In this document: one piece after another, positions 5,857 to 63,621 of the stretch
How positions within the stretch are numbered: the stretch's first letter is position 1
How the letters are laid out: the number at the start of each line of letters is the position of its first letter
NCBI GenBank assembly: GCA_031274555.1
Contig: JAISPZ010000066.1
Location: forward strand, 18,020 to 82,019
Origin: Bacteroidales bacterium
GTDB lineage: Bacteria > Bacteroidota > Bacteroidia > Bacteroidales > P3
Reading direction: 5' to 3'
DNA: 64,000 nucleotides
Made by a program: the position numbers and the translations under genes
Notes under the pieces: model-generated
Database searches by the model: none
Seen by the model: only the letters and a program-made list of their open reading frames with translations
What the model was told of the DNA's origin: nothing

Positions 5857-6918
5857 ATGCAGAACGCCCACACACAAGTCAAAACAGACACAAACGTAAA
5901 GGTCGCAACAGTTATTCTCAATTGGAATGGTAAACATTTTTTAGAAAAATTTTTGCCTGTACTTTTATCTTGCAATACACAAGAACGTTCGGAAATTATT
6001 ATTGCCGATAACGCTTCTACCGACGAGTCTGTTTCTTTTCTCAAAAACAATTATCCAAATATTCGCATTATTGAAAACTCTTTTAACGAGGGCTTTGCGG
6101 GTGGGTATAACACTGCGTTAAAGCAAGTCGAAGCTGAATATTATATACTGCTAAATTCCGATATTGAAGTTACTCCTCATTGGATTGAGCCAATTATTGA
6201 AATGATGGATAACGATAAAAAAATTGCTGCTGTCCAACCAAAAATTCTCTCATATTACGAAAAAGAAAAGTTTGAATATGCTGGCGCAGCGGGCGGTTTC
6301 ATCGACTATCTGGGTTATCCCTTTTGCAGGGGCAGAATATTTGCAAACACTGAAAAAGACGAACATCAATACGACAATGTATGCGAAATTTTTTGGGCGA
6401 CAGGTGCTGCAATCTTTGTCAGAGCTGAAGTCTATCACTCGCTCGGCGGATTAGACAGAGATTTTTTTGCACATCAGGAAGAAATTGATTTTTGTTGGAG
6501 AGCAAAAAATAACGGATATAAAATAATGTACTGCCCCAACTCCACTATTTATCATATTGGCGGTGGCACCTTACCTAAAAGCTCCGCAAGAAAAACATAT
6601 CTTAATTTTAGAAATAATTTTGCCCTTTTGTATAAAAATTTACCAAAAAATAAATTTCTAAAAATATTTTTTTTACGTTTTCCACTTGATATTTTAGCTG
6701 CATTTTCTTTTCTTGCAAAAGGCAATTTGGCAGAATTTTTTGCCGTATTTAAGGCGTTTCGCGACTTTCTTAAAATGCGAAATAAAAACAAGAGTAATTG
6801 GAGTTTGCTTGTACGTAAAGACCATTTAGGACAGATATATTTTCGTTCTCTCGTCCTGAAACATTATCTTGGGCGAGTGGATAAATTCAGTCAATTGTCC
6901 ACAAAAAATTTTTCATAA
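5857..6918 (+). CDS. Family 2 glycosyltransferase
   Basis: 353 aa. N-terminal VATVILNWNG...ADNASTDES and LLNSD motifs typical of GT2 (rhamnosyltransferase-like) enzymes. Confidence 0.85.
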   Translation: MQNAHTQVKTDTNVKVATVILNWNGKHFLEKFLPVLLSCNTQERSEIIIADNASTDESVSFLKNNYPNIRIIENSFNEGFAGGYNTALKQVEAEYYILLNSDIEVTPHWIEPIIEMMDNDKKIAAVQPKILSYYEKEKFEYAGAAGGFIDYLGYPFCRGRIFANTEKDEHQYDNVCEIFWATGAAIFVRAEVYHSLGGLDRDFFAHQEEIDFCWRAKNNGYKIMYCPNSTIYHIGGGTLPKSSARKTYLNFRNNFALLYKNLPKNKFLKIFFLRFPLDILAAFSFLAKGNLAEFFAVFKAFRDFLKMRNKNKSNWSLLVRKDHLGQIYFRSLVLKHYLGRVDKFSQLSTKNFS

Positions 6919-8587: not shown

Positions 8588-9711
8588 AGCTATAAGCTCA
8601 AAAAAATTTCTACTATTGTAGATATTATGGCAACGCGAGATAAAGAATGGAAAGCTATAAGCTCAAAAAAATTTCTACTATTGTAGATGCGAGCCTTGTA
8701 TTGGTATTTTCTTCCAGCTATAAGCTCAAAAAAATTTCTACTATTGTAGATTAAACCAACCAAAAAATCTACTCGTGAAAGCTATAAGCTCAAAAAAATT
8801 TCTACTATTGTAGATATTGTTAAATATGTTATAGTTGCTCGGAGCTATAAGCTCAAAAAAATTTCTACTATTGTAGATCCTTATACTATCGCGAGGTTTT
8901 TTGTTAAAGCTATAAGCTCAAAAAAATTTCTACTATTGTAGATCTGTCGGAGCAAACACAAGAACACGGAGCTATAAGCTCAAAAAAATTTCTACTATTG
9001 TAGATTCATACCCTGCACGGTGAACGACTTTACAGCTATAAGCTCAAAAAAATTTCTACTATTGTAGATGTATAAATCCCAAGAATTAGCGGAACACAGC
9101 TATAAGCTCAAAAAAATTTCTACTATTGTAGATTTTTTCTTTTATATCTTTGCAAATAATTAGCTATAAGCTCAAAAAAATTTCTACTATTGTAGATTCG
9201 GGAAGTACGAAGATAATAACAATCAGCTATAAGCTCAAAAAAATTTCTACTATTGTAGATAGCGTGTCGCATTATCGGCGATAAAGGATAGCTATAAGCT
9301 CAAAAAAATTTCTACTATTGTAGATAGAGCTTTGCCAAAAAGCAAACAAGAGAAGCTATAAGCTCAAAAAAATTTCTACTATTGTAGATCGAGCTTGTTA
9401 AGGTCACTATTTTCGAAGCTATAAGCTCAAAAAAATTTCTACTATTGTAGATATATCAGAATACCGCTTATGCACAATAGAGCTATAAGCTCAAAAAAAT
9501 TTCTACTATTGTAGATGAACGGTGCTTTTACCTGTTCGCCGCCGCAGCTATAAGCTCAAAAAAATTTCTACTATTGTAGATGTTCCAACAGTACGTTTGA
9601 TTTTGAATTAAGCTATAAGCTCAAAAAAATTTCTACTATTGTAGATCAGATGACACAAGCACAATTTAAGGACACAGCTATAAGCTCAAAAAAAATTCTA
9701 CTACCTTAAAT
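8588..9711 (+). CRISPR. Type V-A (Cas12a-type) CRISPR array: 17 identical 36-nt repeats, 1 degenerate terminal repeat, 17 spacers (26-29 nt)
   Basis: Repeat AGCTATAAGCTCAAAAAAATTTCTACTATTGTAGAT. Its 3' end AATTTCTACTATTGTAGAT is the canonical Cas12a crRNA 5' handle (stem TCTAC/GTAGA, loop TATT). Repeat starts: 8588, 8653, 8716, 8780, 8843, 8908, 8970, 9034, 9098, 9162, 9225, 9290, 9354, 9417, 9481, 9546, 9611, and the degenerate copy at 9676. All spacers are unique. The degenerate repeat at the 3' end implies the leader is upstream. Confidence 0.95.
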
Positions 9712-56497: not shown

Positions 56498-58246
56498 TTA
56501 ATAAAATTCCTGTCCTGTCAAAAATTGTTTGCCAGCCTCTGTAATCACATATTTTTGATTGGAAGCTGTTGGTTTGTCGGGATTGGTTTTCCTAATAAGA
56601 CCAACTGTTTCCAAAGGTTTGAGGTAATTCTGTCGAAATTTCCCCTTATCTCTATAATCAAAAACATCTATTAAATCATCTATCGAAAGAGGTGTGCCTA
56701 AAACAAATAAAATCACAAGTAAATATTGAAGCCTTTTGTTTGGCAACTTGGTGCCTTTTTCGGCTGGACTTGGTGCCAAGTTAGTCAGTTTTTCATTTTG
56801 ATTTAGCCGCTCGTCATTACTATTAAGTTTATTTTCAATAGTATAGTAATTTTCGGGATTGGTCCCTTTTTTACCCAAACTTAGTCGCAACTTAGTGCCA
56901 TTTTTCATCCAACTTGATGTCAAACAGGAAATCTGTTCTTCCCAATTCATAGTATGAAGTTGTCCGTCTATCTCAATATTTTTCAGTGATTCCGACAGTT
57001 TCGGTCTCCATTTTTCGTCTAATTCCAACCACTTAAACCATTCATTGGTAAAGTCTGCCATTGTGTGCCGTACCAATGGAATGACGGTTCGGAACAGAAG
57101 CGCATCAATAAAAATCGGCGTTGCATTTTCGACATAAAACGGCAGATATTTTTTCGTGTTCCTGATACCAGACCCAATTTCGTCCGCCCAACCCAGAGCG
57201 GTAAAAAAACGACGAAGATTTGGATTTTTGGGGTGCGGATTGAAATTCTCCAAATCCATTACGCCGTTAAACCACGGATTGTTCGGGTTCAGTGTTCTGA
57301 CTGCATCTTCCTCAATAATCAATTCGGTTGCAGTACCATCGGTATATTCACGGTGGCAAATAATATTGCTAATTACCTCACGAAAAATCTTATCACGCAA
57401 GTCTATACGCTGGTCGCCTTCCATAAAGAATTTGTCAGGCAAATGCCTGTTTATAAATTCTTTTAGTTGCAAATAAGTATCTATTAAATTGGTGCGTAAA
57501 GTCAAACGGTCGTCCCATCGGTCTTTGTTTCTGATGCGCACCATTGCTTCCACTTTGTAAGCAGGAAGCAGGTTTTGAATAGTCAGGTCTTTGCCAAAAA
57601 GCAGTGCGGCTGCCAAAGTAAAACCCTCTTTGTTTTGTTCGTAATCGTTCCAATACAGTACCGCATCGCGAAGCATCTGCATATTATCAACCGTTAGCCA
57701 CGGGTGATCGTTACGGTTACTTCGGATTAAGTTTCGTGCTTTGTCGAACAGCGATCCGTCCAAGTCCGACATTTTCAGCCCTGGATAGATATGCGTTTCG
57801 GTATAAATCATTCCTTTTTTCAGGAAAAGTCCTCTAATCTTATGCTGATTATTCGTAACATCAATATCTGTTTCGTATTCGCGGATATACACTCTGCTCG
57901 AATGGTCGTGTACTTGTGAACTTGCAGGCACTTGTATGGATACAATAATTTTGCCCTGATACTCAACAGCCGTTGGGTTAAGATACATCACAGGGTTGAT
58001 GTTTTCAATGGAATTAAGCGCAGTGGCAATATTTTTAAGAAATTGCGTTTTGAGTTCGGGTGCAATGCCTGATATTGTGCCATCGTCATCCACACCCAAA
58101 AGAATAATGCCACCATTCGTGTTGGCGAAACTTACAACTGTTTCGTACAACGATTGAGGCACTTTTTCTTTCGCTTTCTTAAATTCAATGGAAACGCCTT
58201 CGCCCTGATTGATAATTTTTTCTATATCGGATATTGTCATATACAT
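56498..58246 (-). CDS. AlbA_2 (Schlafen-like) domain protein with HATPase_c_4-like middle and C-terminal wHTH
   Basis: 582 aa. N-terminus GEGVSIEFKKAKEKVP...VVSFANTNGGIILLGVDDDG is the AlbA_2 signature. This family is usually annotated as putative DNA-binding / RecG-like ATP-binding protein. Confidence 0.8.
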   Translation of the reverse strand: MYMTISDIEKIINQGEGVSIEFKKAKEKVPQSLYETVVSFANTNGGIILLGVDDDGTISGIAPELKTQFLKNIATALNSIENINPVMYLNPTAVEYQGKIIVSIQVPASSQVHDHSSRVYIREYETDIDVTNNQHKIRGLFLKKGMIYTETHIYPGLKMSDLDGSLFDKARNLIRSNRNDHPWLTVDNMQMLRDAVLYWNDYEQNKEGFTLAAALLFGKDLTIQNLLPAYKVEAMVRIRNKDRWDDRLTLRTNLIDTYLQLKEFINRHLPDKFFMEGDQRIDLRDKIFREVISNIICHREYTDGTATELIIEEDAVRTLNPNNPWFNGVMDLENFNPHPKNPNLRRFFTALGWADEIGSGIRNTKKYLPFYVENATPIFIDALLFRTVIPLVRHTMADFTNEWFKWLELDEKWRPKLSESLKNIEIDGQLHTMNWEEQISCLTSSWMKNGTKLRLSLGKKGTNPENYYTIENKLNSNDERLNQNEKLTNLAPSPAEKGTKLPNKRLQYLLVILFVLGTPLSIDDLIDVFDYRDKGKFRQNYLKPLETVGLIRKTNPDKPTASNQKYVITEAGKQFLTGQEFY

Positions 58247-58481
58247 TATTGTTTATGTAGTTTAAAATCAATCTGTAACGATAATTATTTTGCAGGAGAA
58301 ATTGACACAGTGATATCTAATGACCATAGTTAGCGTATCGAAATAATAACTCACTTATTTACAGATGTCTATAAACTAAATTTTGCCAAATCACAAAATA
58401 TTTCAATATATAATTCGCTGATTATATTTCTTGTATGTTTTATAATGCGCTTGCCCTGTATTAATTCACCATTTACAATTA

Positions 58482-59666
58482 TCACTCGCTTATCTTCCAA
58501 TAGCCATTTTTGTCAGCCCCTTTGCGGGAAAGAATACCGAGTGATTTAAGTTTTTTCATATTGTTTTCAGTTGCAGTTGTAGATATGTTGAGCAGTTGTG
58601 CAATTTCTACGATTGTAATAGTTGAATTTAATCGAATAATATCTATTATTTTTGATTGGTTTACACCCAACTTTACACCCAACTTTACACCCAACTTTTT
58701 ATCATTTACACCTGTGTTTACACCGTCTTTTACACTGTCTTTTACACCGTCTTTTACACTGTCTTTTATGTTCGGTTTCTTATCATTTACGTCTGTGTTT
58801 ACACTGTCTTTTACACCCAACTTATTTGTATTCGCAAGGGACATTCCTGCATATTTGACATGTAAAAATCGATTTTTCAACACATTGTTTTCTCCAAGAA
58901 GTAAATTGTCAAAGAAGCAATTAAGATATTCTAATGTTGGCTCTATTCCGTCTGCTTGGTCGCGAAAGTTTGCCCTGACAAGCGCATTGCGGAAATACCA
59001 AGAATGTTCGGCAAACATATCATTTTTCACATCGTATCCGAATGAACGAAGGTATTTTATTGTAAATACTGCTGTTGTCCGCGTATTTCCCTCACCAAAA
59101 GCGTGAATTTGCCATATTCCCGAAATAAATTTTGCAATATGCCTGATTGTTTCTGTTTTTGACAATCCTTTGTAGTTAAACGCTTTTTCTTGCGCAAAAT
59201 CGTAATCAAGTGCCTCTCTTAATTCGTATGCGGGAGAATACAAAACCGTTTTGCCGTCGAGCACCCATTCTGATTTGGTTATATTGTAATCGCGGATTTT
59301 CCCTGCAATTTTCGGTGCAACATCGGAAAATAATCTTCTGTGAATAAAGATTAAATGCACGGGACTAAAAGTAAATGTTTTTTCCGACAAAATAGCGGTT
59401 ATATTTGCAGAAACCCTGTCGGCTTCTTCTGTTCTATCATCCGTATCTGTTTGTCGTGCGGTTTGCGTTTTGTAATAAGCATCAATTCTCTTTTTTACCT
59501 CATCAATGGTAATGTCGCCTTCGATATTTTGCTTTGCCTGTTCAATAAGATAAGTAGAGGGTTTCAGCCCATCGACTTGCTGCAAGCCGATAGCCGTTTG
59601 CCAGATACCTGCTTTTTCTATTTTGTTTGGTTCGCCCTGACGGATATATTCTTCAAAGTCGCTCAT
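58482..59666 (-). CDS. Fic/DOC family protein with C-terminal wHTH
   Basis: 394 aa. Fic motif HAFGEGNTRTT (HxFx[DE]GNxRxx). The low-complexity linker KDSVKDGVKDSVKDGVNTGVNDKKLGVKLGVKLGV precedes an HTH-like tail. Confidence 0.88.
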   Translation of the reverse strand: MSDFEEYIRQGEPNKIEKAGIWQTAIGLQQVDGLKPSTYLIEQAKQNIEGDITIDEVKKRIDAYYKTQTARQTDTDDRTEEADRVSANITAILSEKTFTFSPVHLIFIHRRLFSDVAPKIAGKIRDYNITKSEWVLDGKTVLYSPAYELREALDYDFAQEKAFNYKGLSKTETIRHIAKFISGIWQIHAFGEGNTRTTAVFTIKYLRSFGYDVKNDMFAEHSWYFRNALVRANFRDQADGIEPTLEYLNCFFDNLLLGENNVLKNRFLHVKYAGMSLANTNKLGVKDSVNTDVNDKKPNIKDSVKDGVKDSVKDGVNTGVNDKKLGVKLGVKLGVNQSKIIDIIRLNSTITIVEIAQLLNISTTATENNMKKLKSLGILSRKGADKNGYWKISE

Positions 59667-59687
59667 ATCTTTTGATTCTTAGGTTCT

Positions 59688-59695
59688 CAAATTTA
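59688..59695 (-). promoter_or_regulatory. -7 box TAAATTTG (minus strand) upstream of fic
   Basis: Forward sequence caaattta. 22 nt upstream of the fic ATG (59666). Confidence 0.5.
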
Positions 59696-59699
59696 CGCA

Positions 59700-60452
59700 C
59701 TCCCGCATTTAATCTTCTTTTTATTTACTTCTAAGCCTCTCTTAAATCTCTCTTAAATCTCTCTTAATCCTCTCTTAAATTTCTCTTAAAATTTCAGTGA
59801 TTTACAAATAATTACAATAAATTCTCTCTTAATTCTCTCTTAATTCTCTCTTATTCCTCTCTTATTCCTCTCTTATTCCTCTCTTAAATTTCTCTTAAAA
59901 TTTTAGTGATTTACAAATAATTACAATAAATCCTCTCTTAAATCTCTCTTAATCCTCTCTTAAAATCTCTCTTAATCCTCTCTTAAATTTTTTCTACCTT
60001 ACTTCTACCTTACTTCTATTTTACTTCTAAGTTTCTTCTAAAATTTTATTGATTTACACATAATTACAAATAATTTACTTCTATTTTACTTCTAACTTAC
60101 TTCTATTTTACTTCTAACTTACTTCTATTTTACTTCTAACTTACTTCTATTTTACTTCTAACTTACTTCTATTTTACTTCTATTTTACTTCTAAGTTGTT
60201 TCTAAAATTTTATTGATTTACACATGATTACAAATAATTTACTTCTAACTTACTTCTATTTTACTTCTAACTTACTTCTATTTTACTTCTAACTTACTTC
60301 TATTTTACTTCTAAGTTGTTTCTAAAATTTTATTGATTTACACATGATTACAAATAATTTACTTCTAACTTACTTCTATTTTACTTCTATTTTACTTCTA
60401 ACTTACTTCTATTTTACTTCTATTTTACTTCTATTTTACTTCTATTTTACTT
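59700..60452. repeat. 750-bp higher-order repeat: two families of 11-nt tandem units punctuated by conserved about 45-nt units
   Basis: Left half: (cctctcttaaat-like)n runs separated by 2 copies of tttctcttaaaatttYagtgatttacaaataattacaataaat. Right half: (tacttctattt / tacttctaact)n runs separated by 3 copies of aagttRtttctaaaattttattgatttacacaTRattacaaataattt. The array runs directly into the stop codon of the 555-aa gene. Confidence 0.95.
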
Positions 60453-62120
60453 CTATTTTACTTCTAAATCGCCCAATATCCACTCTGGATCTCTATCAGT
60501 TCCTACATTAACAATTCGGTCACTTTGACTAAGTTTAGAAATCAAATTTTTAATCCTATTCTTCTTTTGGTCAATACTCATCCAAGCGGGCAACATATCC
60601 CACAACAGTTTATCAATGTCCTTTCTGCTCAAACTACCATGTTCTTGGATGGATTTCAATATCCAATCAAAATATTGCCGCTTTTCAAAAGCAGTATTCT
60701 TTGAATATTCCGCCTTTTTATCTGTCGCTTGTGCTATCGCCTTGCATACAAAATAGTTTGGTTTCCGTCCTTCTATCAGTTTTTCTTTTCGCAGCATATC
60801 CGCAGAAGTGTCAAGAATAGGTTCTTTCTTCTGAACCTTATCTAATAAAATCACTTTGGAAAGCGATAGGTCGCGCCGTTCAATCAACAATTTAGGATAA
60901 TTCTCATCTATCGTCTGTCCGTACATATACATTATAACTTCGTGTGGGTCAGATAAAATATAGTCTGGCAAAGGAAAAAAACGATTGCGTTGCGATACAT
61001 ACAAACTATGAATTCCATAGCCCAAATGGTCAATCATACCTAAATTAGACATAGCATTTACAAGCCATGGATTTCGGTAACGATTGGGCGTTTTTTCCCC
61101 AAAAGAATACTCTTCTGGTGTCCCTTCAAAGAAATTTCCTGCATTGGTAAAAATTAATTTGTCGATCTTTTCCGTCAAAATAATCCGCGAGCGCAACGAA
61201 TAATCTTGATGTGCAATACAGTTATGAATAGCTTCCAGAATACTTTTCGTATCGTACTTATTAACCGTAGTGGCAAGCAGTTCATGGTCGGGATAAAATC
61301 GGATTTGAACATTTCGTACTCGTTGCATTACCTGTGTCGTAGTCAGCAGAAAAGGTACAGTGAAATGTTCGTATGCTTTTTCCTCAGTATCTAATTTCCA
61401 CGTAATTTCGGCAATAGCAGGCGATAAATAGTGTACTGATTCAGGCTTCCCTAAAAGCAAAAGAGCAGTGTTTGTTATTTTTTGATTGATAGTTATCCTC
61501 GCTTTGTCTAAAAAGGTCGAATCATCCCAAGTATCTATCTGACCGAAATAAGGTACATTGGGATTTTTCTCTTTAAACTTTTCACGAGCAACTTTCAGTG
61601 CTTGTGGTTCTAAATCAACTACGCTCGCTTTTTCGACAACTTTTGCACTCCAATCTTCCTGCGAGTTATAAATAATCCGCATCCAATCGGGATATTTCAA
61701 TAAATCGGTTTTGTTGCTACCTACACGAACAAACGGCTTCTTTTGGAAATTAGTCGGCTCACTTTTTGCAGCGGGAATACGCACAAGGACAATGTGTTTA
61801 TCCTCGTAATCAAACTCAAATATCTCAAAATTAATTTTTGGGTCAAGATAAATTCTCAGCCATAACTCCAAATCTTGATTACCATGTTTAGCGTTAGCAA
61901 AACTAAATGTCGTGCCTTTGATGGCATGAGTTCTGTCCTCTACCCCCCAAACCAAATAGCCGAACGGTTTATTTGCCAAAGTTGCACCATTACTCATGGC
62001 ACTGATGTATTGACCTATCTGCTCATGGTCAATGCCGTTTGATTTAAATTCCAACCATTGTTGCTCTCTCGGTTGAGAACATAAATCGTGTAATAAATTT
62101 ATTAAATCTGTGTTGGTCAT
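60453..62120 (-). CDS. AlbA_2 (Schlafen-like) domain protein, second paralog-class member
   Basis: 555 aa. N-terminus REQQWLEFKSNG...ISAMSNGATLANKPFGYLVWGVEDRT (AlbA_2 pattern). HATPase_c_4-like middle (AIHNCIAHQDY). wHTH-like C-terminus. Confidence 0.8.
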   Translation of the reverse strand: MTNTDLINLLHDLCSQPREQQWLEFKSNGIDHEQIGQYISAMSNGATLANKPFGYLVWGVEDRTHAIKGTTFSFANAKHGNQDLELWLRIYLDPKINFEIFEFDYEDKHIVLVRIPAAKSEPTNFQKKPFVRVGSNKTDLLKYPDWMRIIYNSQEDWSAKVVEKASVVDLEPQALKVAREKFKEKNPNVPYFGQIDTWDDSTFLDKARITINQKITNTALLLLGKPESVHYLSPAIAEITWKLDTEEKAYEHFTVPFLLTTTQVMQRVRNVQIRFYPDHELLATTVNKYDTKSILEAIHNCIAHQDYSLRSRIILTEKIDKLIFTNAGNFFEGTPEEYSFGEKTPNRYRNPWLVNAMSNLGMIDHLGYGIHSLYVSQRNRFFPLPDYILSDPHEVIMYMYGQTIDENYPKLLIERRDLSLSKVILLDKVQKKEPILDTSADMLRKEKLIEGRKPNYFVCKAIAQATDKKAEYSKNTAFEKRQYFDWILKSIQEHGSLSRKDIDKLLWDMLPAWMSIDQKKNRIKNLISKLSQSDRIVNVGTDRDPEWILGDLEVK

Positions 62121-62303
62121 ATTATGTTATATTATTTATCTTTTTAAAAGCGTTCTTGCACAAGTTATTTTTTTCGATTAAACTTCTATTAGGCTCCACT
62201 ATTGGACTCCTCGTTTCAATTCCTATACATCATCATAGTTACATCATACACAATATCACATTTAGCAACGAAATAAACACTACGCTAAATTGGGCTATAT
62301 CCG

Positions 62304-62564
62304 TTACCGCAACGCATCTGCCATTGCCTGTAATTTGTCAGCATCTTTTTTATCAAACAAAAACTCATCCCAATGTCCGTATCTGCAATGATAACCGAAA
62401 ATATACTTTAATCCTGATTTCAATCTCCGCCAAAAACCATGTTCCGTAAGATGAATACATAGATACAATTCCTTATGATCTTCATCGTAATAAACGAATA
62501 TTTGATGTTCATGGCTATGGCATCTACAAATCAATAATTCTGTTTCTTTAAGTTCCTGTTTCAT
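62304..62564 (-). CDS. Small Cys/His-rich hypothetical protein (86 aa)
   Basis: ORF begins 10 nt after the upstream gene's stop. Contains CRCHSHEH, CIH and HCRYGH clusters that suggest metal binding. No family recognised. Confidence 0.55.
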   Translation of the reverse strand: MKQELKETELLICRCHSHEHQIFVYYDEDHKELYLCIHLTEHGFWRRLKSGLKYIFGYHCRYGHWDEFLFDKKDADKLQAMADALR

Positions 62565-62574
62565 ATTTTTTATT

Positions 62575-63621
62575 TTAGTTTTCTTCTTTATAGTATATTT
62601 TATAAAATTTGCGACCGTTTTCGTCAGTGCCTTGCTCTATTAACTCCCGATTGCCGTGTATATAAATATGGAAGTTCTTATCCAATTTAATGACACTCTT
62701 GAATACACGTGCTTGTTTCTTTACCGCACTATCAGAAATTGTGAAATTATCGGCAATTTCCAATTCATGTTCTTGCACGTATGCAGATTTGTATTCGGTG
62801 AAACTTTTTATCACGTCAGGTTGTTCAATTACTTCGTTGGCAAATTCTTCCAAATTGAAATTATCTTTTTCTTTAAAGAATTTTACCGATTTATTCAAAA
62901 GGTCAATCTGGTCTGCTTTGGAAACGTTTTCAAACTGTTGAGGCAATTCGTTTTTGACAAAATCCTTACAAAGGGATAGTACATTCTGCGTATTATAATA
63001 TTCATCCTTACGCTGACGAACGTGCAGAAAATCATCTATCCAATATTGAGCCTCAACGCCCTTATTGGTATTATCAACCACAGCAACAACATATCCTTTT
63101 TCTCGCTCCATATTAAATATCAAACAACCTTTGTCTAATTTATTGATATTAATTCCTTTTTCGCTCTCAATTTCGAAACCATCCCCTGATGGAAAAACTT
63201 TTAGAAAAGTATCCTTATTTTCCGACTTAAATAATCCAACAGCATCCACTGTTTCACCGTCAATAATGCAATCTTTAAAATAGACAGTATAAAACTCTCC
63301 CCCTTTGATTTTGGGATGGGTGCTTTGCTCGTATAAATGTTTGGCAAGATTTACAGATTGTTCCAAAAGAAAATTTGGATTATCAAAAATCTTATTTACG
63401 CAAGCAAATACTTCATTCATATTTATATCAATGTCGTGATAGAAATTGAAATATTCGTTGGATTTTAAAAATGGGGACACGAAATAATAGACTAACGTAC
63501 TCTTATCTATTTTGTTTATTTTCAAACCGTTTTTTGCGGGTTTGAAAAAATCATTATTTATTTTGTTTCCAACAATATGAATTGCAATATTCTCTATTGC
63601 TGAATTTTCACAGTATATCAT
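62575..63621 (-). CDS. Nucleoid-associated protein (NdpA/YejK, NA37-like)
   Basis: 348 aa. The N-terminus IENIAIHIVGNK and the central YWIDDFLHV resemble the NA37 family layout. Its start overlaps the upstream ORF's stop by 4 nt (ATGA). Confidence 0.65.
   Translation of the reverse strand: MIYCENSAIENIAIHIVGNKINNDFFKPAKNGLKINKIDKSTLVYYFVSPFLKSNEYFNFYHDIDINMNEVFACVNKIFDNPNFLLEQSVNLAKHLYEQSTHPKIKGGEFYTVYFKDCIIDGETVDAVGLFKSENKDTFLKVFPSGDGFEIESEKGININKLDKGCLIFNMEREKGYVVAVVDNTNKGVEAQYWIDDFLHVRQRKDEYYNTQNVLSLCKDFVKNELPQQFENVSKADQIDLLNKSVKFFKEKDNFNLEEFANEVIEQPDVIKSFTEYKSAYVQEHELEIADNFTISDSAVKKQARVFKSVIKLDKNFHIYIHGNRELIEQGTDENGRKFYKIYYKEEN

Follow-up and report, generated by a model that had tools for sequence, protein, structure and literature searches.

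Our analysis of a 64,000-nucleotide (nt) stretch of a Bacteroidales genome (here called the window; GenBank assembly GCA_031274555.1, contig JAISPZ010000066.1, positions 18,020 to 82,019 of the forward strand) concerned a 744-bp array of 11-nt repeats that separates a gene encoding an AlbA_2/HATPase_c_4 protein from the fic gene downstream. Comparison with related sequences showed that this array is the local case of a 3' module of the AlbA_2/HATPase_c_4 gene family. The initial annotation had treated it as a local feature upstream from fic, a description that was not borne out, since the array belongs to the 3' end of this gene family: it begins in the last codons of the gene, lies on the same strand, and is built of head-to-tail 11-nt units that are common to homologs. 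We hold with moderate confidence that the units are cognate docking sites for the winged-helix tail of the encoded protein and that they act in cis on the downstream gene.

The family-wide nature of the module emerged when 401 Bacteroidales genomes were searched with the AlbA_2 protein and each homolog was inspected at its 3' end. Nearly all Bacteroidales homologs carry 2 to 10 head-to-tail repeats of 8 to 12 nt that begin either on the stop codon or slightly ahead of it, by a few codons, with the first copy no more than 15 nt from the stop in most loci; no comparable repeats were seen on the upstream (5') sides of family genes. A 7-mer occurred at least three times within 120 nt around the stop in 18 of 27 homologs (from 27 Bacteroidales genomes), compared with 0 of 28 control open reading frames (ORFs), and repeat coverage separated the 27 homologs from 28 other long ORFs of the same loci with a Mann-Whitney P value of 2.6e-8, which overstates the independence of loci that are mutually related. 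Three tandem TAGAAGTAArw units were found by exact search in 16 metagenome contigs, in 6 of which they stand exactly at the stop of an AlbA_2 homolog of about 550 amino acids (aa). The unit TAGAAGTAA is present at the stop of L108 (80% identical), L110 (65%), and L099 and L100 (both 42%); the last two, like L111 and L112, encode AlbA_2 homologs that are 42% identical and lie between mod and res of a type III restriction system. Similarly, L127, whose protein is 44% identical overall to that of the window, has eight copies of CTTAAGAGAGAA, the unit of the window's sub-array 1 (TAAGAGAG type). The units of other loci are AAGATAAAGA (L113 to L116), TTAGATAAAC (L120 and L123), TTTAGACATAC and TTTAGACGAAAA (L118, L119, L129, and L133), TTAGTCAATTA (L130), TTAGTCGCGTT (L134), and AAAGACAGA (L136, in an array of 490 nt). 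Among Clostridia, L145 has four copies of ATTGGTTCAAG, and L144 and L146 have direct and inverted copies; the archaeal homolog L142 also carries stop-codon repeats, and in three high-G+C alphaproteobacterial plasmids, where the homolog is part of a methylase-helicase operon, the 61 nt between it and the helicase gene are filled by three copies of TAAGAAAG/TACGAAAG.

Two of these loci showed further features. In L136 (genome G032), about 53 units of the types AAAGACAGA, AAAGTCAGA, and AAAGATAGA occupy the first 490 nt past the stop of a homolog that is 41% identical, so large expansions are not unique to the source genome of the window. In L119, the sequence about 170 to 380 nt past the stop, behind the repeats, is a leftover piece of a different family gene, from the part that encodes the C-terminal winged helix; recombination within the conserved 3' region may thus have replaced one gene by another.

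These distributions bear on the simplest alternative, that the array is a neutral, hypermutable satellite, made by slippage, in which neither the units nor their copy number has a function. The source genome (2.76 Mb in 157 contigs, 40% G+C, 78% complete) would suit such an origin: tandem repeats make up 3.75% of it (1718 rows in the Tandem Repeats Finder output, 393 of the arrays being heptameric), other higher-order arrays with punctuation are present in the window, repeats follow the stop codon in 15% of control ORFs, and the two most similar modules of the array are nearly identical, pointing to a recent duplication. We nevertheless regard neutrality of the whole element as somewhat unlikely, because the same units are found in the same place behind genes that are only 42 to 44% identical in other genomes, because repeats accompany the homologs and not the neighboring ORFs, because high-G+C alphaproteobacterial plasmids keep three TAAGAAAG-like copies, and because the core sequence described below is conserved in L108 and L110. 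Neutrality may, however, explain the size of the expansion.

The array occupies positions 59723 to 60466 on the minus strand, the direction of both flanking genes; its existence and approximate length had been recognized in the initial annotation (about 750 bp), whereas the limits given there (59700 to 60452) needed correction. A parse of this strand in the short-contig assembly resolved 53 eleven-nt units: 47 stand free and are 11 nt long (one of them 12 nt), five belong to 43-nt units, and one 11-mer closes the array. Read from the AlbA_2 gene, there are nine TAGAAGTAA(AA/GT) units, a 43-nt unit, seven 11-nt units, a 43-nt unit, eleven 11-nt units, a 43-nt unit, five 11-nt units grading into the second type, four TAAGAGAG(GAT/ATT) units, a 43-nt unit, six 11-nt units, a 43-nt unit, five 11-nt units, and TAGAAGTAAAT. 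The division into two 11-nt sub-arrays with two and three punctuation units, respectively, was claimed from the outset and agrees with both this parse and Tandem Repeats Finder, which reported 11-nt arrays at 59737 to 59988 and 59992 to 60467, with higher-order periods of 109, 164, and 120 nt. Sub-array 2 (59986 to 60466, minus strand) comprises 32 free-standing units, mostly TAGAAGTAA(AA/GT), and the punctuation units at 60325 to 60367, 60205 to 60247, and 60041 to 60083; sub-array 1 (59734 to 59985, minus strand) comprises 15 free-standing units of the form TAAGAGAG(GAT/ATT/GAA/AAT) and the punctuation units at 59898 to 59940 and 59789 to 59831. The terminal 11-mer TAGAAGTAAAT (59723 to 59733, minus strand) lies directly upstream from the fic promoter region. 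At the other end, the array overlaps the AlbA_2 coding sequence: unit 1 (60456 to 60466) is translated as the C-terminal LEVK, and unit 2 contributes the TAG stop codon of the gene (60453 to 60455), in keeping with the earlier observation that the array ends in the context of this stop codon.

The punctuation units, first described as conserved 45-nt elements, are indeed present in five conserved copies but are better understood as composites in which an 11-mer is joined to a 32-nt core, TTGTAATnATnTGTAAATCAnTrAAATTTTA, which is the same in both sub-arrays. The five cores (60325 to 60356, 60205 to 60236, 60041 to 60072, 59898 to 59929, and 59789 to 59820, all on the minus strand) have no more than one mismatch each to this degenerate sequence. 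The stretches between the five 43-nt units (77, 121, 100, and 66 nt) consist entirely of 11-nt repeats; a CRISPR array was rejected on the ground that the intervals are themselves repeats. A search of the 2.76-Mb source genome found the units and the core at the array locus and nowhere else, a 19-nt match on contig C37 being a single stray copy only, and an exact search for the core in the metagenome contigs gave no matches.

Comparison with the ordinary layout of the module indicates what the window array represents. Most homologs have a proximal cluster of units at the stop and then, 65 to 110 nt further on, one or two copies near the beginning of the following gene, the two parts often being separated by 45 to 100 bp of A/T-rich spacer. 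The distal copy has the opposite orientation in six loci (L108, L110, L127, L125, L144, and L146), where the spacer measures about 45 nt. The next gene typically encodes HsdR, a type III Res subunit, a helicase, a methylase, or a TOTE primase, and in L125, as in the window, it encodes a Fic protein. The A/T-rich single-copy spacer behind L108 and L110 aligns with the five cores of the window, with the columns TTGTA...TGTA.ATCA...ATTTT invariant, and the window array is thus an ordinary module (units, spacer, unit) that has been amplified about five times with longer runs of units. We infer that a five-fold duplication of the module and a lengthening of its unit runs would have occurred through slippage and unequal recombination in a repeat-amplifying genome, and that a second module type, TAAGAGAG, which is typical of a related winged-helix lineage, would have been joined on. 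Relative to the short stop-codon repeat that family genes carry in many bacteria, the block is expanded roughly ten-fold; the 744-bp expansion itself is probably an extreme, possibly neutral, enlargement of a family element.

The source genome contains an unusually large set of 17 to 18 HATPase_c_4 (COG2865-type) genes, and by eye a tandem array was recognized at the stop in 8 of the 14 that could be evaluated, each with its own unit. The units of these paralogs include the G+C-rich AAGCGGGCA, TTGGGCAATAG, and TCGCGACA, and a paralog on contig C14 that is 51% identical to the window's AlbA_2 protein ends in three copies of a different unit, TTAGATAAATAA. Several of these loci have features of their own. 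On contig C109, two neighboring HATPase_c_4 genes share a AAGCGGGCA array (after the genes that contain 261 to 518 and 6209 to 6466) as well as the sequence beyond it, and the second has four copies of AATCACGCA ahead of the AAGCGGGCA array, a two-unit composite that mirrors the sub-arrays of the window. A HATPase_c_4 gene on contig C133 is followed by a 63-nt higher-order array (1774 to 2120) with three TCGCGA-type units per copy, and one on contig C78 (after 15985) ends in ten copies of ATGAAGCAGTAA that overlap the stop codon. Contig C61 carries an AlbA_2 gene and a Fic paralog (69% identical to the window's Fic) within 3 kb, and many contig ends of this genome consist of G-rich 11-nt repeats. 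A same-genus genome has a Fic homolog and gave no AlbA_2 or NA37 match. The 41-copy AGAAGTAAAAT array of L098 was set aside as unrelated, as it lies in ORF-free, probably eukaryotic DNA.

The identity of the candidate binder is suggested by the C-terminal part of the AlbA_2 protein. An AlphaFold2 model of the last 170 residues, based on a 32-sequence alignment, had a pLDDT (predicted local distance difference test) score of 77 and showed two helix-helix-helix-hairpin units that resemble winged helices. Foldseek matches to this model were weak (E values of about 0.03 to 0.1) and almost all were to winged-helix DNA binders (MarR family, ScpB, and TubR), together with PDB 3lmm, a 555-aa structural-genomics protein that probably belongs to the same family as the AlbA_2 protein. 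Pfam gave no significant match on the C-terminal 167 aa, and the winged-helix assignment therefore rests on the fold model.

Repeat type and protein tail appear to be coupled. The N-terminal 390 aa of the window protein are 75% identical to those of L113 and the last winged helix is only 31% identical, and the units of the two loci differ; against L127, identity is 41% in the N-terminal part and 56% in the last winged helix, with related units. Across 351 pairs, with unit classes assigned by eye, identity of the last winged helix predicted a shared unit class with an area under the curve (AUC) of 0.79, compared with 0.645 for identity of the N-terminal 390 aa; when close kin were excluded, the AUC values were 0.73 and 0.52, respectively. 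By these sequence comparisons, the unit type follows the last winged-helix domain and not the Schlafen-ATPase body. The same unit occurs behind the gene in both type III restriction-modification (R-M) and Fic contexts, so that its distribution matches that of the Schlafen gene rather than that of any partner system; on this basis, we rejected the possibility that the partner R-M enzyme recognizes the units as its target sites.

On this view of the tail, the AlbA_2 neighbor is the likely binder of the array, as judged from sequence, and the initial suggestion of an iterated protein-binding platform, shorn of its local, fic-upstream framing, is favored by the comparative evidence. The C-terminal winged-helix domains of the protein would dock on the repeat units of its own gene, the candidate duplexes here being (TAGAAGTAAAA)n and (TAAGAGAGGAT)n; the spacing of about one helical turn would place the sites on one face of the DNA, and several protein molecules could line up beside their own gene. 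The bound protein would then set the expression of the downstream gene, fic in the window, or would itself be held there, or both. Elsewhere, that next gene is usually a harmful or effector gene of a defense operon (HsdR, type III Res, helicase, or Fic). The layout is operator-like, given the inverted copies in some loci, the spacing of 10 to 12 bp, and the different units behind the paralogs of one genome. Binding of the protein by the array and regulation of fic by it are what we infer from this pattern.

Several observations, in addition to the visual assignment of unit classes, weigh against the docking of the protein on its repeats. The coupling of unit and winged helix is expected from function and from linkage alike, because the repeats adjoin the part of the gene that encodes the winged helix; linkage does not, however, explain an 11-nt noncoding unit that is unchanged between genes whose proteins are only 42% identical. 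The likeliest DNA-reading helix (QKxNKIKNLL) is strongly conserved while the units vary, so that a TTAG/TAAG-like core common to the units may be all that this helix can read, or the specificity would come from elsewhere. An exact 7-mer count in the source genome found repeats behind 6 of 14 family genes, compared with 15% of 1279 control ORFs (Fisher P = 0.011), and since so many control ORFs also have post-stop repeats, the within-genome enrichment is modest. A sample of 28 HATPase_c_4 genes from Firmicutes showed no repeat excess (P = 0.39), and the repeat trait is therefore specific to a subfamily and is not general in the HATPase_c_4 superfamily. Among 19 gaps separating a family gene from the next one, just 5 contain a perfect -7 promoter box. 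Finally, it may make no functional difference how far the array has expanded.

The same protein and sites could also act in a different way, which we consider unlikely. Nascent winged-helix tails might be caught in cis at the stop-codon sites, forming a head-to-tail filament along the one-turn repeats in which the nuclease is held inactive at its own locus. Because the tail emerges from the ribosome last and its sites begin at the stop codon, capture on the encoding DNA would be favored. A DNA-templated filament of this kind would, in addition, control the effector gene downstream; the protein would be set free and become active when the DNA of the locus is lost or damaged or when phage DNA competes for it, and the length of the array would set the size of the stored pool. 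The inactive filaments reported for Schlafen-Argonaute, which are templated by guide RNA, offer an analog for such a tether (preprint 10.64898/2026.05.29.728809).

Alternatively, the repeats could act at the RNA level, as an unstructured, mostly purine-rich intercistronic platform for the Schlafen-type protein or the ribosome that sets the translation or stability of the downstream message. In several loci, the repeats fill intra-operon gaps of 51 to 61 nt and end 7 to 20 nt before the next start codon, and the sense-strand units are purine-rich in most loci from Bacteroidales and alphaproteobacteria. Folding of the array RNA did not exceed that of shuffled sequences (z = +0.5 and +1.8), and no Rfam match was found in 58000 to 62500 at E <= 1, so that a structured RNA was rejected. 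It would also suit this alternative that Schlafen domains are RNases (PMC13462974; preprint 10.64898/2026.05.29.728809) and that the RefSeq name of the plasmid homologs is "RNA-binding domain-containing protein." The inverted copies in six loci are nevertheless better suited to sites in duplex DNA, many units are not purine-rich (TTAGTCGCG, ATTGGTTCAAG, and TTTCACCAAT), repeats are present even where there is no next gene on the same strand (L092), the unit type follows the winged-helix domain, and much of the fic mRNA may lack the array because the -7 box lies downstream from it; action as RNA thus appears distinctly unlikely. A reading of the units as stop-codon or Shine-Dalgarno-like sequences was rejected, as many contain neither stop codons nor purine runs.

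The period of 11 nt is close to one helical turn, and phased A-tracts might curve the segment upstream from the fic promoter and act through RNA polymerase or nucleoid proteins such as NA37, with no specific binder. In a dinucleotide wedge model, whose values are qualitative only, the ratio of end-to-end to contour length was 0.78 for the array (minimum, 0.59 to 0.67), compared with 0.95 +/- 0.04 for the genome (1st percentile, 0.79), and the 3' flanks of the family were on average more curved than those of controls (P = 8e-5). The strong intrinsic curvature expected in the initial annotation is thus predicted for this array but does not hold as a property of the family: about half of the homologous modules are predicted to be straight (ratio above 0.95), and the units of paralogs and of Clostridia can be G+C-rich or free of A-tracts. 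For these reasons, we regard curvature as a by-product of A-rich units and not as a conserved property; the conservation of units across distant homologs is, moreover, not needed for bending, and a purely structural role appears improbable.

An origin-like or iteron role, also proposed at first, was not supported. Tandem 11-bp direct repeats beside the gene of a DNA-binding protein do recall R1 parC, F sopC, and P1 incA, but cumulative GC skew is monotonic through the site, and only four scattered DnaA boxes, each with one mismatch, were found in 16 kb, none of them in the array. No Rep or Par genes flank the array, and none were among the seven neighboring ORFs scanned with Pfam; the 119-kb contig carries ordinary chromosomal genes, and the same module is found inside the R-M operons of many genomes. 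Short-read assemblies can miscount arrays of this kind, but the longest exactly repeated stretch, about 105 nt by inspection, is within the reach of large k-mers, and independent assemblies of homologs (L127, L136, and L119) show the same kind of array. A replication origin, a partition site (iterons or a centromere), or an assembly artifact is therefore very improbable. The end of a mobile cassette or a target-site duplication was likewise rejected, as there is no copy of the unit on the 5' side of the genes.

The genes around the array were identified by Pfam as had been proposed. The AlbA_2 gene (60453 to 62120, minus strand) encodes 555 aa with SLFN_AlbA_2 and HATPase_c_4 domains, followed by the two winged-helix units predicted by the fold model, and the fic gene (58482 to 59666, minus strand) encodes a Fic domain with a C-terminal helix-turn-helix (HTH); the Fic protein matches the PADLOC candidate defense family PDC-S72 (E = 1.6e-134). 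A second AlbA_2 protein with a Fic-like C-terminal domain is encoded at 56498 to 58246, and an NA37 nucleoid protein is encoded at 62575 to 63621.

The putative promoter region between the array and fic contains a match to the Bacteroidetes -7 promoter consensus, TAnnTTTG. In the housekeeping promoters of this group, TAnnTTTG stands about 7 nt ahead of the transcription start, and a TTTG at -33 precedes it by about 19 nt. The sequence TAAATTTG (59688 to 59695, minus strand) matches it perfectly 21 nt before the fic ATG (59666) and lies 27 nt past the last unit, consistent with the earlier placement of the start of the array just upstream from this box; there is no TTTG at -33. The 32-nt core contains TTTG and the A/T-rich TAAAATTTT, and in each copy TTTG is followed after 18 nt by TAAAATTT, which matches the -7 box at 6 of 8 positions (the spacing is different in L110). 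The cores align with the fic-proximal promoter segment, the perfect -7 box being present in the proximal copy only, and the core may thus be regarded as putatively promoter-like. A sigma-70 promoter scan of the array found fewer promoter-like sites than in shuffled sequences, and a terminator scan found none in the array.

Other repeats were noted in the neighborhood. The linker that precedes the HTH of Fic (58660 to 58814) contains in-frame 12-nt repeats, AAAGACAGTGTA and AAGTTGGGTGTA, whose GTGTAAA is also present in the 32-nt core of the array. The same-genus Fic homolog has 57 copies of a 12-nt unit (L012, 4857 to 5541; L003 and L012 are one locus), and repeats of 12 or 21 nt occupy the equivalent place in the Fic homologs of L014, L024, L056, L059, L060, and L108. 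Upstream from the AlbA_2 gene, at 62186 to 62210 and just after an 86-aa Cys/His ORF, CTATTAGACTCCA is present in 1.9 copies, with TTAGAC on the opposite strand. Elsewhere in the window (8588 to 9647), about 15 to 16 copies of a 36-nt repeat recur every 64 nt or so in a CRISPR-like array; the repeat ends in AATTTCTACTATTGTAGAT, which we take to resemble the repeats of type V-A (Cas12a) systems.

Few Schlafen architectures are as common in prokaryotes as the stand-alone Schlafen-ATPase-HTH proteins, which are found in R-M and other defense operons. A stop-codon repeat that covaries with the last winged helix would be a candidate ligand for every member of the subfamily, and the 53-unit array offers a high-valency candidate substrate for binding tests. 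If the docking reading is correct, it would account as well for a kind of unusual repeat block between genes that annotation has ignored.

Parallels among known systems include tandem-repeat sites that lie beside the gene of their binding protein, such as P1 incA after repA, F sopC after sopB, and the 11-bp repeats of R1 parC. Like these iterons and centromeres, the array consists of head-to-tail repeats spaced by a helical turn or a multiple of it, adjoins the gene of a DNA-binding protein, and is lineage specific with variable copy number; unlike them, it has no Rep or Par partner and no origin signature, stands in a chromosomal defense setting, overlaps a stop codon, and accompanies a protein that is a nuclease-ATPase. 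The C proteins of R-M systems are similar in that a DNA-binding protein is encoded inside the R-M operon and has its sites before the restriction gene, with roadblock and promoter control both documented (e.g., PMC6237814). They differ in being small HTH dimers that bind inverted C-boxes upstream from their own gene, whereas the protein here has 550 aa and its candidate sites are direct repeats downstream from its gene. With minisatellites or variable-number tandem repeats and contingency loci, the array shares higher-order amplification, copy-number drift within modules, and an intergenic position near a promoter, but its unit sequence and position are conserved across phyla together with one gene family. 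Its 11-nt-phased A4 tracts and a predicted curvature about 4 standard deviations above background recall the curved DNA found upstream from some promoters, although curvature is not common to the homologous modules.

On the protein side, the pairing of Schlafen and GHKL domains has been named "Schlatpase"; most such proteins are small, and more than 90% have an HTH (preprint 10.64898/2026.05.29.728809). They are tightly associated with R-M, BREX, and CRISPR loci, and their activation mechanism is described as unknown (PMC13462974), as are both the target of the HTH and the way in which the proteins are switched on (PMC13462974; preprint 10.64898/2026.05.29.728809). The stand-alone "Schlatpase"-HTH (PF04326 and PF13749 with a C-terminal HTH; COG2865; 3lmm) has exactly the architecture encoded by the AlbA_2 gene, which itself lies in a defense island and has relatives inside R-M operons; the two reports differ from what is described here in that they mention neither a DNA target of the HTH nor repeats at the gene end (PMC13462974; preprint 10.64898/2026.05.29.728809), and our literature search found no paper describing stop-codon repeats of Schlafen-ATPase-HTH genes. 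Measured against these systems, the array is iteron-like or operator-like, in a previously undescribed position and with a previously undescribed partner family.

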